Virus record (IMG/VR): IMGVR_UViG_3300037249_001405
Span: 1-64,000 of that record
DNA: 64,000 nucleotides
Strand: one strand, 5' to 3'
Source: a virus
Lineage: Duplodnaviria; Caudoviricetes
Positions 7,087-59,596 of this stretch are shown piece after piece (position 1 is the stretch's first letter; each line of letters opens with the position of its first letter). The notes beneath the pieces are model-generated. The model saw only the letters and a list, made by a program, of their open reading frames with translations. It was not told where the DNA came from and did no database searches. The position numbers were made by a program, and so were the translations under genes.

Positions 7087-7185
7087 CCTTAAAAACCTTA
7101 TTCATGAAGAAAGTATAAATGTAATAATATACTTTCTTCTTTATTTTTCTAGATTTTTATTAACTTTTAAAAAACTACAAATATT
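7087..7185 (+). promoter_or_regulatory. Promoter-hairpin leader cassette, copy 1
   Basis: CCTTAAAAACCTTATTCATG; 12-bp hairpin 7106-7117/7128-7139; TTTATTTTTCTAGATT at 7140. Same architecture at 56531 and 58872. Confidence 0.6.
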
Positions 7186-55533: not shown

Positions 55534-55917
55534 TTATTTCTTTTCTATTTTAACTAAATATATAAATCTGTTTATTGTGGATAGGAAATCATCAATTATA
55601 TTAATTGATCCAGACCACATTAAACTATCACCTATTTCTCTTTTATAAGATATAACTAATCCTCTGATCCCCTCTAATACATCCGAGAATGTTGATTCTT
55701 CCGGTAGAGTTGGATTAAGGGTTCCTATTTCAAAAAAGCCAACAAAAGGAACTGCATTCTCTACAACAGCATCCTCAAATTCACCTAACTCATCTTGAAA
55801 TTCATCAATGAGCTTGTGAATAGAAATAGGACCTGTATTCCAGTGTAATTCCTTTAATCTTGTTTGAAAACCCTCTATTTTATTTATTAATTCTATAACT
55901 TTTCCTAAATTAACCAT
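55534..55917 (-). CDS. Dps/ferritin-like protein
   Basis: LKELHWN....IHKLIDEF...FEDAVVE four-helix ferroxidase-like pattern. Confidence 0.65.
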   Translation of the reverse strand: MVNLGKVIELINKIEGFQTRLKELHWNTGPISIHKLIDEFQDELGEFEDAVVENAVPFVGFFEIGTLNPTLPEESTFSDVLEGIRGLVISYKREIGDSLMWSGSINIIDDFLSTINRFIYLVKIEKK

Positions 55918-56014
55918 AGTTTTTGCTATTTTAATTAATTAACTATTCTGAAATTAGAGTATTGTCGTTAAATTGCCTCTATTTCTAGCTTTTATGTTTT
56001 CTACGGGCGTAATT

Positions 56015-56034
56015 GCTTGAAACTCTTATATATG
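56015..56034 (+). promoter_or_regulatory. Putative promoter for the large ncRNA candidate
   Basis: GCTTGAAACTCTTATATATG matches the motif at 7087, 56531, 58043 and 58872. Confidence 0.5.
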
Positions 56035-56071
56035 AACACAATAAAAAATAAAAAATAAAAAATCATAAAAA

Positions 56072-56526
56072 AAGAGGAACAGGATTTCCTTTAAGGTAGT
56101 AGTAGCCTACCTGTTCTTCTTAATTACTACAAAATTACCCACGGCTTGCGCAGTAGAGGAGTGATGCCCTCTTGCAAAAGAGTTAATGTCAGTGGAAAGA
56201 CGGAAAGTGGTTAAGGGAACTTAGTGTTAAGAGTTCGCCTTGTAAAATGAAAAAAGCGGTTACATGAAATGATATATGGTAGTCGCAAATTAACACTTCG
56301 GATATGACGTAAAGTCAACGGCTTTGTGATTCTTTCAAAGGGATACTGTAATTACCTTTGTGGAAGAGCTTAGCCCTGAATCCGAAATGGCTGGCAGCTT
56401 TCTATGGAAGTGCATCAGCGCTACGAAACGACCTCCCTTGAGCAAGGACTTACAGGATCGTTTCTTGAAGGGCGTATACTTCCCCACCAATGTTGAATTC
56501 ACCTCAACATTGGTGGTTTTTTTTTT
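56072..56526 (+). ncRNA. Large structured ncRNA candidate (multi-pseudoknot), family unknown
   Basis: No long ORF, visibly more GC-rich than flanks, bounded by a putative promoter and a strong terminator; many helices and loop-distal complementarities. Confidence 0.6.
56484..56526 (+). terminator. Rho-independent terminator
   Basis: 13-bp stem CCACCAATGTTGA/TCAACATTGGTGG + T10. Confidence 0.85.
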
Positions 56527-56530
56527 GCTC

Positions 56531-56623
56531 CCTTAAAAATCTAAATATGGAAGAGAATATAATAATAACTTATATTTTCTTCATTTTATTTTTCTAGATT
56601 TATTAACTAATTAAATATTTATT
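56531..56623 (+). promoter_or_regulatory. Promoter-hairpin leader cassette, copy 2
   Basis: CCTTAAAAATCTAAATATGG, GAAGAGAATATAA hairpin, TTTATTTTTCTAGATT at 56585. Confidence 0.6.
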
Positions 56624-57253
56624 ATGGGCATATTAAAGGTTTCAATCCCATATGAAGAAAAGTTGGAGTGGTACAACACTTTGACTTTTCAGGATTTAAT
56701 AGACCTTGTTTTAAAGGACACTATTGTATCCATTAAATGGGCTACTCTTAGCCCTGACTGGGGAATTGATTCTCGTGGTGTTAGTAGTAGCAGAAAAGAG
56801 GAGAATCAATATTGGAAGTTTTCCGAAAAGACTTACAGGAATATTCGTCTCAAGAATATGACTGAAGTCAAGCCAGAAACTTTACTTAAAGATGTAAAGA
56901 TGACTGGAAATTATTACTCATCCTGTGATTATTGGGTACACAATTTTCCAAAGTTGAGTATTAATAAAATTAAACAATGTGAAAGCAAGAGAGATCTTTG
57001 CAAAGCGTTTTTTAGAATATTAAGGCCATTTCTCTATTTTCGGATCTCTGATTATGATTATTGGAACATAATCAAAGTAATTAGTAGAGATCCAAATGCC
57101 TATAGCAAGGATAAAAGTTCCGAAATCGATTCAATAGAATCAGAACTTTGGGAACTTAAAAAAGAATACGAATCCAAACGTAAAAAATTAGAAAAAAGAT
57201 TGGATTCTGCTAAGATTTATAATAATATTTATGAATATATAAAAAACGATTAA
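56624..57253 (+). CDS. Hypothetical protein
   Basis: 209-aa ORF behind the leader cassette. Confidence 0.65.
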   Translation: MGILKVSIPYEEKLEWYNTLTFQDLIDLVLKDTIVSIKWATLSPDWGIDSRGVSSSRKEENQYWKFSEKTYRNIRLKNMTEVKPETLLKDVKMTGNYYSSCDYWVHNFPKLSINKIKQCESKRDLCKAFFRILRPFLYFRISDYDYWNIIKVISRDPNAYSKDKSSEIDSIESELWELKKEYESKRKKLEKRLDSAKIYNNIYEYIKND

Positions 57254-57995: not shown

Positions 57996-58030
57996 AAAAA
58001 TAACCGGATTAAATATCCGGTTATTTTTCT
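57996..58030 (+). terminator. Terminator
   Basis: AAAAATAACCGGAT-TAAAT-ATCCGGTTATTTTT. Confidence 0.75.
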
Positions 58031-58065
58031 TTCTTATTATCTCCTAAAAGCCTTATATATGGATA

Positions 58066-58290
58066 AATGGAGTTACTGTGTTTCGGTAACTATATCTAAT
58101 CGACATACGGAAGGTCCACAAGCGGAGTTGGTTAGACGAAATCTAGTTCCATTCTAGCATCGTTTGGGCGATGTAAAAATACTTGTGACTTATAGCCGTG
58201 AATAGCGTGTACTAACAGCTATTCATTGTCAGGGGTTGTTGTTAGCCCCGTAGGAATACATAACTAGCTGTAAGGATAAGCCCAAAGCGG
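58066..58290 (+). ncRNA. Structured RNA / 5' leader with pseudoknots (candidate)
   Basis: Putative promoter at 58043-58061; about six helices and two loop-distal pairings. Confidence 0.55.
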
Positions 58291-58363
58291 AAAGATAAAG
58301 GAAAAGAAAGAAGAGTAATAATATACTCTTTCAAGTTAACAAACAATTAAATTAATACATAAT

Positions 58364-58522
58364 ATGGCAGAGAAAATAATTGTTGCCATCAGTGGTGCTA
58401 TTGCTAGCACCGCGGTTGGCAAATTGCTGAAAACCGCACTCGTGGAGTATATGGAACTTCGCAAGTGCGAAAAGATTGCTGATGCCGCTCGAGCAATCGA
58501 GAGAGGCAGCAATCAGCAATAA
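58364..58522 (+). CDS. 52-aa small protein (not in ORF track)
   Basis: MAEKIIVAISGAIASTAVGKLLKTALVEYMELRKCEKIADAARAIERGSNQQ; AT-rich leader; hairpin at about 58530-58561 after the stop. Confidence 0.6.
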   Translation: MAEKIIVAISGAIASTAVGKLLKTALVEYMELRKCEKIADAARAIERGSNQQ

Positions 58523-58597
58523 AAAACTTGAAAGAGGTGCATGTAAAAACCTACCTCTTTCTTTTGAGACACACTTATACTGAAACGTCGTAAGTGT

Positions 58598-58707
58598 GAG
58601 CTACACTATTTATTTTGACTAAAACTGTAGTCTAGTCAGCTAAATACTTATACTAGGCCTGAAGAGACCTAACAAGGTTGAAACAGTTTAAAATAAATAG
58701 TGTACTC
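58598..58707 (+). ncRNA. Hammerhead ribozyme, type III
   Basis: Stem III AAACUG/CAGUUU; cleavage triplet GUA 58627-58629; stem I GUCUAGU/ACUAGGC; core CUGAAGA 58659-58665; stem II GACC/GGUU; GAAA 58680-58683; outer 15-bp helix 58602-58616/58690-58704. Confidence 0.85.
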
Positions 58708-58825
58708 AAGATACACGCGACGTTTATATTTTCAAGATTAACAAATAACAACATACATATTTTTTAGTTTTAGTTGAGATAGTAAGATTTCAACTAAAGT
58801 TTGGGATTTAACTATCCAACTTACA

Positions 58826-58862
58826 TCAGTGAACAGCGGGATTCACTGAGCTATTTTTTTTT
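58826..58862 (+). terminator. Terminator
   Basis: TCAGTGAA...TTCACTGA stem followed by a T-run. Confidence 0.6.
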
Positions 58863-58871
58863 GCTCCTATT

Positions 58872-58966
58872 CCTTTAAACTCTTAATATTGAAGAGAATA
58901 TAGACAGTTAAGTTTCTATTCCCTTCTTTATTTTTCTAGATTATTAACTTTTAATTAAATATTATT
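58872..58966 (+). promoter_or_regulatory. Promoter-hairpin leader cassette, copy 3
   Basis: CCTTTAAACTCTTAATATTG, GAAGAGAATA hairpin, TTTATTTTTCTAGATT at 58927. Confidence 0.6.
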
Positions 58967-59596
58967 ATGGCATATCAACAACCCGAACGTGACCGTTGCC
59001 TTGAACCCCGCAGGCGTATCATGGCTATGGCTGGAGCTGGTGTGGCGGCTGAAGAGACCGATATCGAGCTCTTTGGATTTGATGGTTCTATCATAGGAAC
59101 TGTCAAACCGTATGAAACTAATGATCCTAGGAAAAAGATCATTAATGATTACTTAATTGAGTATTCAAGTAAATTGCTGAATAAGTTCGGCGATGAATTG
59201 AATAATCAAAGCCCAGCTGATAGCACTGCTACTGCAATGGTTGATGCAATGCTCGCAGCTAGAATACCGATTATGGCAGAAAAATTTTGCGAATCGGTTA
59301 ATACTGATTATGAACATATACCCACAGAGGAGTATATTCGTAGACCAGATATTGAAGTATTATTTGAGGAGTATGTAAAATTGACAGAAGCATTATCATC
59401 AGATAATACACCAGAAAAAGAAAAAATTGGGTTGAGAAAATTCAAAACCCAATTAATGTATAAGCTTGATAAAGAAATCCATGAATTTCTTAAAATTGCT
59501 TATTCTAAAGACGTTTTCCAAGAAGCCAAGCGGCTTCTTGGACAAGCGATTAAGCAATCTATTGAGGTTGCTACCGAAAAAGCTGATAATAATTAA
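58967..59596 (+). CDS. Hypothetical protein
   Basis: 209-aa helical ORF behind the leader cassette; terminator-like hairpin at about 59608-59655. Confidence 0.65.
   Translation: MAYQQPERDRCLEPRRRIMAMAGAGVAAEETDIELFGFDGSIIGTVKPYETNDPRKKIINDYLIEYSSKLLNKFGDELNNQSPADSTATAMVDAMLAARIPIMAEKFCESVNTDYEHIPTEEYIRRPDIEVLFEEYVKLTEALSSDNTPEKEKIGLRKFKTQLMYKLDKEIHEFLKIAYSKDVFQEAKRLLGQAIKQSIEVATEKADNN

Follow-up and report, generated by a model that had tools for sequence, protein, structure and literature searches.

What is encoded in a 706-nt gap without open reading frames (ORFs) that separates two divergent genes of a phage? Such a gap lies between genes 55534-55917 (-) and 56624-57253 (+) in the 64,000-nt stretch of viral DNA that was analyzed here as the window, i.e., the first 64 kb of the 210-kb IMG/VR virus record IMGVR_UViG_3300037249_001405 (CheckV completeness of 56%; guanine-plus-cytosine (GC) content of 34%). 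An earlier note, made from the letters of the window, had placed a multi-pseudoknot RNA of ~450 nt in this gap and considered a new class of large RNAs. According to our analysis, the stretch at ~56037-56526 (+), termed RNA1, is quite probably a stand-alone gene that specifies a structured non-coding RNA ~450-490 nt long. It would act in trans and would represent a previously undescribed family that is ROOL/GOLLD-like and yet a member of neither.

First, the RNA1 stretch is non-coding. No credible ORF of at least 50 aa was present under table 11 or with TAG read as Q, TGA as W or TAA as Q, and the gene callers called nothing in this stretch in any contig. Its GC content of 40-45% exceeds the 25-33% of the flanks. 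The minimum free energy (MFE) of the plus strand had a z score of -3.9, with 0/100 dinucleotide shuffles folding as well, and that of the minus strand a z score of -3.0. By our own count, made with a CsrA-type sponge in mind, GGA motifs were found 12 times as compared to ~8 expected.

Second, RNA1 is under purifying selection and evolves far more slowly than its neighbors. A search for alleles anchored on the flanking proteins yielded the same RNA in contigs L007/L048, L008/L050, L012, L052, L053, L054 and L055. Close alleles of six other metagenome contigs showed ~98% identity, and over the core at 56072-56516 the window shares 98.2% of its positions with L007 and L008; for comparison, identity was 79-88% at third codon positions of three neighboring genes and 82% in the spacer behind the terminator. 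The alleles differ at 24 sites, comprising 11 paired sites at which the pair is kept, 11 unpaired sites and two at which pairing is lost (in the terminal pair of helix P8, and in P12a). When only these close alleles were scored on a single-sequence MFE fold, 10 kept pairs faced 5 broken ones (p ~0.07-0.12), which is suggestive and not significant. The structural case rests on a more distant sequence.

Third, this distant sequence was found in L049, a Logan contig from SRR13433992. Its flanks correspond to those of RNA1, with the promoter region being 90% identical to 55918-56052 and the spacer 88% identical to 56518-56623, and blastn returned no match for the 670 nt lying between them. Over aligned core positions, RNA1 and L049 are 59% identical. 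Short blocks are common to both (CCCAC, UGAUGCC, GCAAAA, AAGUGGUU, GUAAAAUGAA, UGAAAUGAUAUAUGGUAG, AUACUGUAA and UACAG.AU), and the intervening stretches differ. Complementary segments, mostly of different sequence, occurred at homologous positions of L049 for 14/14 RNA1 helices tested, and a separate MFE fold of L049 yielded P1, P1a, P6-P10 and the long-range closure.

Covariance models (CMs) pointed in the same direction. Model R1, made for the 185-nt core at 56204-56388 from RNA1 alleles only and with our own helix model, was run on 305 kb and recovered L049, and nothing else, as a full-length match (33.2 bits, E=4e-5); model R2 scored L049 at 103 bits. In the CM alignment of the core, 16 of the 46 pairs showed compensatory two-sided changes, and 97.8% of cells were paired, the latter being an inflated percentage. 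In the controls, sliding the partners by 1-3 columns left 0-2 such pairs and 35-49% paired cells, and 0/500 shuffles reached the observed value. A fold kept by compensatory change in L049 is supported by these double changes. The core shared by RNA1 and L049 consists of P5-PK2-P6 with loop UGAAAUGAUAUAUG, P7-P10 with loop GA(A)UACUGUAA and the P2/P3 closure.

Table 1. Features of the RNA1 locus, with window positions and the observations behind each assignment (PK, pseudoknot).
Feature	Position	Strand	Observation
Helix P1 with cap P1a	56072-83/56110-21; P1a 56094-97/56105-08	+	L049 counterparts AAGAGAUUUUAGA/UCUGAGAUCUCUU and AGGC/GCCU; U56097C turns a G.U pair of P1a into G-C
Candidate PK1, P1a loop GUAGUA with UACUAC	56099-104/56125-30	+	6 Watson-Crick pairs; L049 ACGUAG/UUACGU
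Long-range closing helices P2 and P3 around the core	56153-56/56421-24; 56162-67/56412-17	+	Present in L049, also by MFE; P2 GUAG/CUAC vs L049 GUGAUCC/GGAUCAU; P3 in L049 UGAUGCC/GGCAUCG
P4 hairpin UGUC/GACG	56187-56202	+	L049 GCUAUG/CAUAGC; G56202A turns U.G into U-A
P5 hairpin with loop AGUGUUAA	56212-22/56231-42	+	3 compensatory pairs (CM alignment)
PK2, P5 loop AGUGUUAA with UUAACACU	56223-30/56290-97	+	8 Watson-Crick pairs
Conserved junction UAAAAUGAA(A/G)AAG	56243-56255	+	Near-identical in RNA1 and L049 despite differing adjacent helices
P6 hairpin, stem GCGGUUAC/GUAGUCGC and conserved 15-nt loop AUGAAAUGAUAUAUG	56256-56286	+	4 compensatory pairs, loop kept; L012 and L052 GCAAUUAC/GUAAUUGC; L049 UAACCUAUC/GGUAGGUUA
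Three-way-junction domain P7-P10	56297-56386	+	All four helices in L049 with other sequences
P7 UUCGGAU/AUCCGAA	56297-303/56380-86	+	L049 UGAGGAUCC/GGAUUCUCA
P8 UGAC/GUCA	56305-08/56314-17	+	L049 GCUAG/CUAGC
P9	56320-23/56372-75	+	L049 GGUGA/UUACC
P10 CAAAGG/CCUUUG with conserved loop GAUACUGUAAUUA	56336-41/56355-60	+	L049 GUAGAG/CUCUAC
Candidate tertiary pairing PK3, P10 loop GAUACUGUAA with UUACAGGAUC	56342-51/56450-59	+	6+3 pairs, read directly from the sequences
P11 hairpin GCUUUC/GGAAGU	56397-56411	+	C56402U retains the pair as U.G; L049 AUGC/GCAU
Uncertain 3' hairpin GAAACGA/UCGUUUC	56425-56464	+	Predicted in RNA1 only; competes with PK3
Putative phage promoter motif GCTTGAAACTCTTATATATGAA	56015-56036	+	Motif recurrence; also kept by L030 and L049 and by remoter relatives
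A-rich 5' leader, poorly conserved	56037-56071	+	75% identity with indels among alleles vs 98% in the core
Predicted intrinsic terminator	56484-56526	+	13-bp stem (56484-56516), 7-nt loop, then T10
Post-terminator spacer	56532-56623	+	Flanks the cassette, outside the RNA; bears promoter-like motif TTTATTTTTCTAGA of the downstream gene
Whole cassette (promoter, RNA, terminator)	56001-56531	+	Missing from the empty allele

An architecture of at least 14 helices and one to three pseudoknots, at least one of which is a true one, is supported by these comparisons (Table 1). In L049, loop AGGGAGAG can pair with UUCUCUCU at the place homologous to PK2, and three positions are altered on both sides; judged by these matched changes, PK2, in which the P5 loop pairs with the strand joining P6 to P7, is a true pseudoknot. 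The candidate pairing PK3 corresponds to a perfect 10-bp pairing in L049 (GAAUACUGUA/UACAGUAUUC, at homologous places), with both strands being conserved in sequence. Two competing helices were rejected. A long-range helix predicted by RNAalifold (56159-71/56470-83) was given up in favor of P2/P3 because only P2/P3 has an L049 counterpart, and an outer stem GCUGG/UCAGC around P11 overlaps P3 and would be broken by G56393A in L052.

All complementary elements that the earlier note had listed were present where it had placed them. Its first helix (56072-83/56110-21) and its closing helices GUAG/CUAC and UGAUGC/GCAUCA have counterparts in L049, and the loop pairing AGUGUUAA/UUAACACU, proposed there as of pseudoknot type, is genuine given its covarying L049 equivalent. 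Other elements had to be revised. The supposed pseudoknot UCGGAU/AUCCGA (56298/56380) is supported as a helix by L049, but it is the nested stem P7. The loop pairing GUAGUA/UACUAC is plausible, with a 6-bp counterpart in L049, but by a rough estimate it is insignificant alone given the search space and stays unconfirmed. GAAACGA/UCGUUUC is unconfirmed as well: it is predicted in RNA1, is broken by G56430A in L007, lacks a clear L049 equivalent and competes with a loop pairing that has better support. The proposed GNRA hairpin CUCUU-GCAA-AAGAG is contradicted, as G56180A breaks a pair in L012 and L052 and L049 has no in-register equivalent; only GCAAAA is conserved in this region, as sequence.

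The earlier note had also assigned RNA1 a promoter and a terminator of its own, and both were found as a recurrent phage motif and a predicted intrinsic terminator (Table 1). Within the window, CTTATATATG occurs without mismatch at 56025 and 58052 only. The shorter form TTATATATG[AG]A has eight copies in the 210-kb genome, with a common upstream consensus of roughly GCYTGAAACYC; these copies precede RNA1, a second unit termed RNA2 and several protein genes, and the motif is also found in distant relatives. Since a sigma-70 scan gave no fit to it, the motif probably represents a phage-specific promoter class. The terminator is the strongest terminator-like site of the region and is invariant in all alleles. 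Behind it, the spacer is retained in the empty allele described below and recurs as a 77%-identical copy at 58855-58981, after the RNA2 unit.

The remaining copies of TTATATATG[AG]A lie at 132599(-), 132700(-), 149717(+), 149828(+), 153146(-) and 170163(-) of the 210-kb genome. Two tandem copies lead into a 136-aa ORF with 52-55% GC, and a T-run only 73 nt past the copy at 149828 may mark a small RNA. Exact copies of TTTATTTTTCTAGA are present at window positions 7140, 56585 and 58927, ~25-40 nt upstream of gene starts, and this motif is probably a second promoter class of the phage.

RNA1 is part of a discrete accessory cassette that extends from promoter to terminator and whose site is either empty or occupied by a divergent homologue or by an unrelated-looking structured RNA. 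The phages compared share a 127-aa protein that is >90% identical to that of the window, yet they differ at the RNA1 site. In the empty allele (L044-L047), a 195-nt gap was observed in which 55918-56000 is joined via 15 nt to 56532-56623; several more contigs are probably empty, judged by gene spacing. What is lost is exactly promoter, RNA and terminator, the downstream genes being retained, and the junction falls within T-runs (T-run microhomology). L049 carries the divergent homologue at this site. In L030, the same promoter motif is followed by another ORF-free RNA of ~430 nt with its own terminator (L030:830-1265, - strand), which folds very stably (z=-6.3) and matches no Rfam family; the first downstream gene is also different. 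In L003, L027 and L029, which are more distantly related, other genes occupy the RNA1 site.

Further units were examined as possible members of the RNA1 family and rejected. The L030 RNA reached 11.5 bits with model R2 and filters off (E=0.46), i.e., noise level, and a local alignment z score of -0.2; homology of RNA1 to RNA2 (58062-58363) and to L003:2900-3285 was rejected by local alignment as well. The second unit of the window (58052-58862) begins with the same promoter (CTTATATATG, at 58052), its terminator and spacer resemble those of RNA1, and its structured-looking leader of ~300 nt (95.7% conserved as compared to L007) is followed by a 52-aa ORF at 58364-58522; none of the Rfam hammerhead models matched 58000-58900 at E<=1. 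The L003 element (- strand) is an ORF-free, GC-richer stretch of ~380 nt located after a 194-aa homologue, with no Rfam match and a sequence unrelated to RNA1 and RNA2.

The 3' ends of RNA1 and L049 differ. The L049 RNA has ~250 extra nt there, which finish in a cloverleaf at L049:1203-1274 (- strand) called by ARAGORN as tRNA-Ile(AAU), and RNA1 has no tRNA-like element. This anticodon is unusual for bacterial tRNA-Ile. The cloverleaf is contiguous and possesses an anticodon arm, unlike the tRNA-like domain of transfer-messenger RNA (tmRNA), which is built from the 5' and 3' ends. It scored 35.9 bits with the Rfam tRNA model, as compared to 35-74 bits (mostly 55-74) for the tRNA genes of the phage itself, shows good D and T arms and a poor acceptor stem, and is nested inside the terminator stem. 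The element is probably a covalently linked tRNA mimic or a processing handle.

How might such an RNA work? By analogy with ROOL and GOLLD, RNA1 would act in trans as a compactly folded particle, whose invariant loops and junctions (AUGAAAUGAUAUAUG, GAUACUGUAAUUA, UAAAAUGAA, AAGUGGUU and GCAAAA) may bind a partner or each other. We favor a trans-acting, compact RNA that binds a partner or itself on two grounds, namely the likeness to ROOL and GOLLD and the fact that invariance is confined to loops and junctions and does not extend to helices. As RNA1 appears dispensable and is exchanged at a variable site, a host-interaction or counter-defence role can be suggested with low confidence; RNA1 may fill a dispensable, strain-variable role of this kind during infection. 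Tentatively, the family could be taken one step further: RNA1/L049 may be an ornate RNA-only machine, which would assemble with itself into a particle as ROOL and GOLLD do or would capture a host factor by mimicry, and the site may be an RNA accessory locus at which unrelated large RNAs (RNA1 type, L030 type and, nearby, RNA2) are swapped as promoter-to-terminator cassettes, like anti-defence protein genes in phage hot spots.

ROOL and GOLLD are RNAs of phages or prophages with several hundred nt, many pseudoknots and no known function. Both assemble into cages made of RNA only, and their loci are frequently close to tRNA islands (PMC12286853). GOLLD has one conserved and one variable region, with tRNAs sometimes embedded in a linker, and ROOL is a stand-alone transcription unit with no known protein partner (PMC12286853). 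The new RNA resembles ROOL in being phage-borne, several hundred nt long, rich in predicted helices and pseudoknots and apparently a stand-alone unit, and the covalent link to a tRNA-like element in its L049 allele echoes the tRNA-island setting of ROOL. In contrast to ROOL, it is shorter (~450 nt for RNA1, 670 nt for L049), has another helix layout and does not match the Rfam ROOL model (E<=10 for RNA1, E<=5 for L049). It resembles GOLLD in combining a conserved core with a variable 3' part, which holds the tRNA-like element in L049, but it reaches at most half the length of GOLLD, and conservation falls on its 5'/central core as compared to the 3' half in GOLLD.

With respect to its mobility, the cassette can be compared to another system. 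T4-type phages possess mobile regulatory cassettes, the promoter-early stem-loops (PeSLs), in hyperplastic regions. As with PeSLs, one and the same site can carry an accessory unit between a conserved promoter and a conserved terminator or spacer, lack it or carry another in its place, and the same flanks recur here at a second unit (promoter at 58052, spacer at 58855-58981); in contrast to PeSLs, the cargo is a structured RNA and not a protein gene.

Several observations weigh against regarding RNA1 as a trans-acting RNA gene of a new family. Its locus is ~30 kb away from the tRNA cluster (87-97 kb), unlike typical ROOL and GOLLD loci. We infer its transcription start and promoter class from the motif alone. 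The covariation comes from two lineages, one consisting of the RNA1 alleles and the other of a single L049-type sequence. Moreover, the CM alignment was fitted to the model and leans towards it; the double changes still count because model fitting cannot generate so many. Exact-word and gapped scans of IMG/VR, the searched JGI metagenome set and GTDB representative genomes gave no further homologue. The family has so far been seen in one lineage of low-GC jumbo phages, by metagenome-derived sequences only, and since no homologue was found beyond this lineage, it may be narrow and young.

A more specific version of the trans-acting reading is that RNA1, or the tRNA-like element of L049, serves as an anti-defence decoy. 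The factor of the host that it would mimic or sequester could be, for example, the ribosome, an enzyme that targets tRNAs or a nuclease used in defence. This would explain a swappable cassette in a hypervariable region and agrees with presence, absence and replacement at one site among phages with the >90%-identical 127-aa protein, with the tRNA-like element of one allele and with a promoter class that drives several other units too. Nevertheless, we regard it as rather unlikely: in Rfam searches and scans of GTDB representative genomes, neither host RNAs nor CRISPR repeats were found to resemble it, it is not linked to any protein of defence or counter-defence, Pfam and PHROGs are nearly silent on the neighbors, and the evidence is circumstantial.

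Could RNA1 be catalytic instead, with a core built from its conserved junctions and pseudoknots that processes the RNA itself or acts on another RNA? The predicted helices and pseudoknots, with invariant unpaired blocks between covarying helices, would suit a ribozyme, and the phage has other RNA machinery (a group I intron and 19 tRNAs). We consider this improbable, as RNA1 matched no Rfam ribozyme at E<=10, including the models of small self-cleaving ribozymes (hammerhead, twister, HDV-like and others), and has neither flanking exons nor an obvious substrate. Moreover, ROOL and GOLLD show that such complexity need not mean catalysis (PMC12286853).

A role in cis is very unlikely. RNA1 and the genes downstream of it point in one direction, only 107 nt separate its terminator from the ATG that follows, and its structure is elaborate, so that a leader or attenuator could be imagined, i.e., a long 5' untranslated region with conditional terminator read-through that controls the 209-aa and 239-aa genes. 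The empty allele argues against it, because it keeps the downstream genes and the promoter-like spacer without the RNA, and L030 has a different RNA in front of a different first gene. In addition, the predicted terminator is very strong (13 bp and T10), no conserved alternative anti-terminator pairing was found, and the spacer bears its own recurrent motif TTTATTTTTCTAGA.

It is still less probable that RNA1 is a highly diverged member of a known family (ROOL, GOLLD, tmRNA, RNase P RNA, or group I or group II introns) that the Rfam models missed, although phage setting, size, pseudoknots and the tRNA-like element of one allele are in line with this. With Rfam 15, nothing reached the gathering score across the window. 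With relaxed filters, a search of 55900-56650 at E<=10 gave noise only, and one of the L049 homologue at E<=5 gave no family match beyond its tRNA-like element. In particular, at these thresholds neither RNA1 nor L049 matched the models of ROOL, GOLLD, RNase P RNA or group I and group II introns, the empty site has no exon junction, and RNA1 matched no riboswitch model. ARAGORN detected no tRNA in the window and no tmRNA in the window or the 210-kb genome, and no tmRNA match was obtained with Rfam. These negatives are meaningful because elsewhere in the genome the same library recovered a group I intron, with 62.5 bits, as well as 19 tRNAs. The statement of the earlier note that the RNA could not be matched to tRNA, tmRNA, RNase P, group I or II introns or riboswitches has thus held in Rfam 15 and ARAGORN searches, and its suggestion of a new class of large structured non-coding RNAs is supported by the covariation together with the absence of a family match.

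Least credible of all is that the stretch codes for one or more small proteins and is structured only by coincidence. Both strands do contain ORFs of 30-58 aa, but the longest, a 58-aa GTG ORF at 56360-56536, crosses the terminator hairpin and T-run, its substitutions (read from the allele alignment) are as frequent at codon positions 1 and 2 as at 3, ORF calling was negative also under recoded stops, and L049 preserves helices and not a reading frame.

If RNA1 is a trans-acting RNA, it would join a small group. Large ornate RNAs of bacteria and phages without a known function are few; OLE, GOLLD, ROOL and raiA can be named, and each has repaid study, the latest example being the RNA-only cages of ROOL and GOLLD. 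The core of ~400 nt with ~14 covariation-supported helices has a size suited to cryo-electron microscopy and chemical probing, and three natural comparisons are available, i.e., phages with an empty site, the L049 homologue, which is 59% identical and extended by a tRNA-like element, and the phage in which another RNA occupies the site. Judging by the swapping of whole RNA genes between conserved promoter and terminator flanks, structured RNAs may count as accessory cargo in jumbo phages, a pattern for which we know of no documented case.

Searches for additional copies and targets yielded candidates that were rejected. No second copy of RNA1 was found in the 210-kb genome or in the whole records of five IMG/VR relatives. 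Exact-word matches to GTGGAAAGACGGAAAGTGG (one high-GC phage), ACGGCTTGCGCAGTAGAGGA (four high-GC coding regions) and TGAAATGATATATGGTAG (a coding region common to 17 other phage contigs) were ascribed to chance, and those to GGAAGTGCATCAGCGCTACG fell in a conserved protein-coding gene (motif MEVHQRY) of diverse bacteria and never in viral contigs. Two gapped patterns made from blocks conserved between RNA1 and L049 gave either no match or matches rejected by the CM. When the phage genome was screened for sites that the conserved loops could bind in antisense, the only near-exact matches proved to run in the same sense as the local mRNAs and are therefore not targets but probably due to chance. 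They are an exact same-sense 13-mer of the P10 loop (GATACTGTAATTA) at 208136-208148(+), inside ORF 207622-208602 (~0.006 expected), and a 13/14 match to the P6 loop at ~208995-209008(+), inside ORF 208602-209591 (~0.07 expected), both being probably fortuitous.

The source of the DNA is a divergent, low-GC jumbo phage. This follows from the 210-kb record, in which most proteins have no Pfam or PHROGs match, and from its 19 tRNAs (at 87-97 kb and 120 kb) and group I intron. Record names of some related contigs (STEW19 and several JGI and ENA sets) hint at metagenomes of the rumen type, and samples containing the phage include SRR12150676, SRR13433992, SRR35054308, ERZ920187 and JGI 3300041865. 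The tRNA cluster, with 17 genes, lies within locus L032 (83.8-103.8 kb of the genome), and two more tRNA genes lie at ~120.8 kb; one ARAGORN call, at 94672-94745, has a four-base anticodon (ttta). The group I intron is located at ~87735-87976. Upstream of RNA1, gene 55534-55917(-) encodes the 127-aa protein, a DUF5856/ferritin-like protein according to Pfam and PHROGs. Downstream, the 209-aa product of gene 56624-57253(+) has no function assigned by Pfam or PHROGs, and a 239-aa gene follows further downstream. In the L049 homologue of gene 56624-57253, an in-frame TAG occurs ~70 nt after the ATG where the window has CAG (ACTTTGACTTTTTAGGAT vs ...TTTCAGGAT), and the gene caller shortened the gene to 133 aa; this TAG could reflect a pseudogene, an error or amber read-through.

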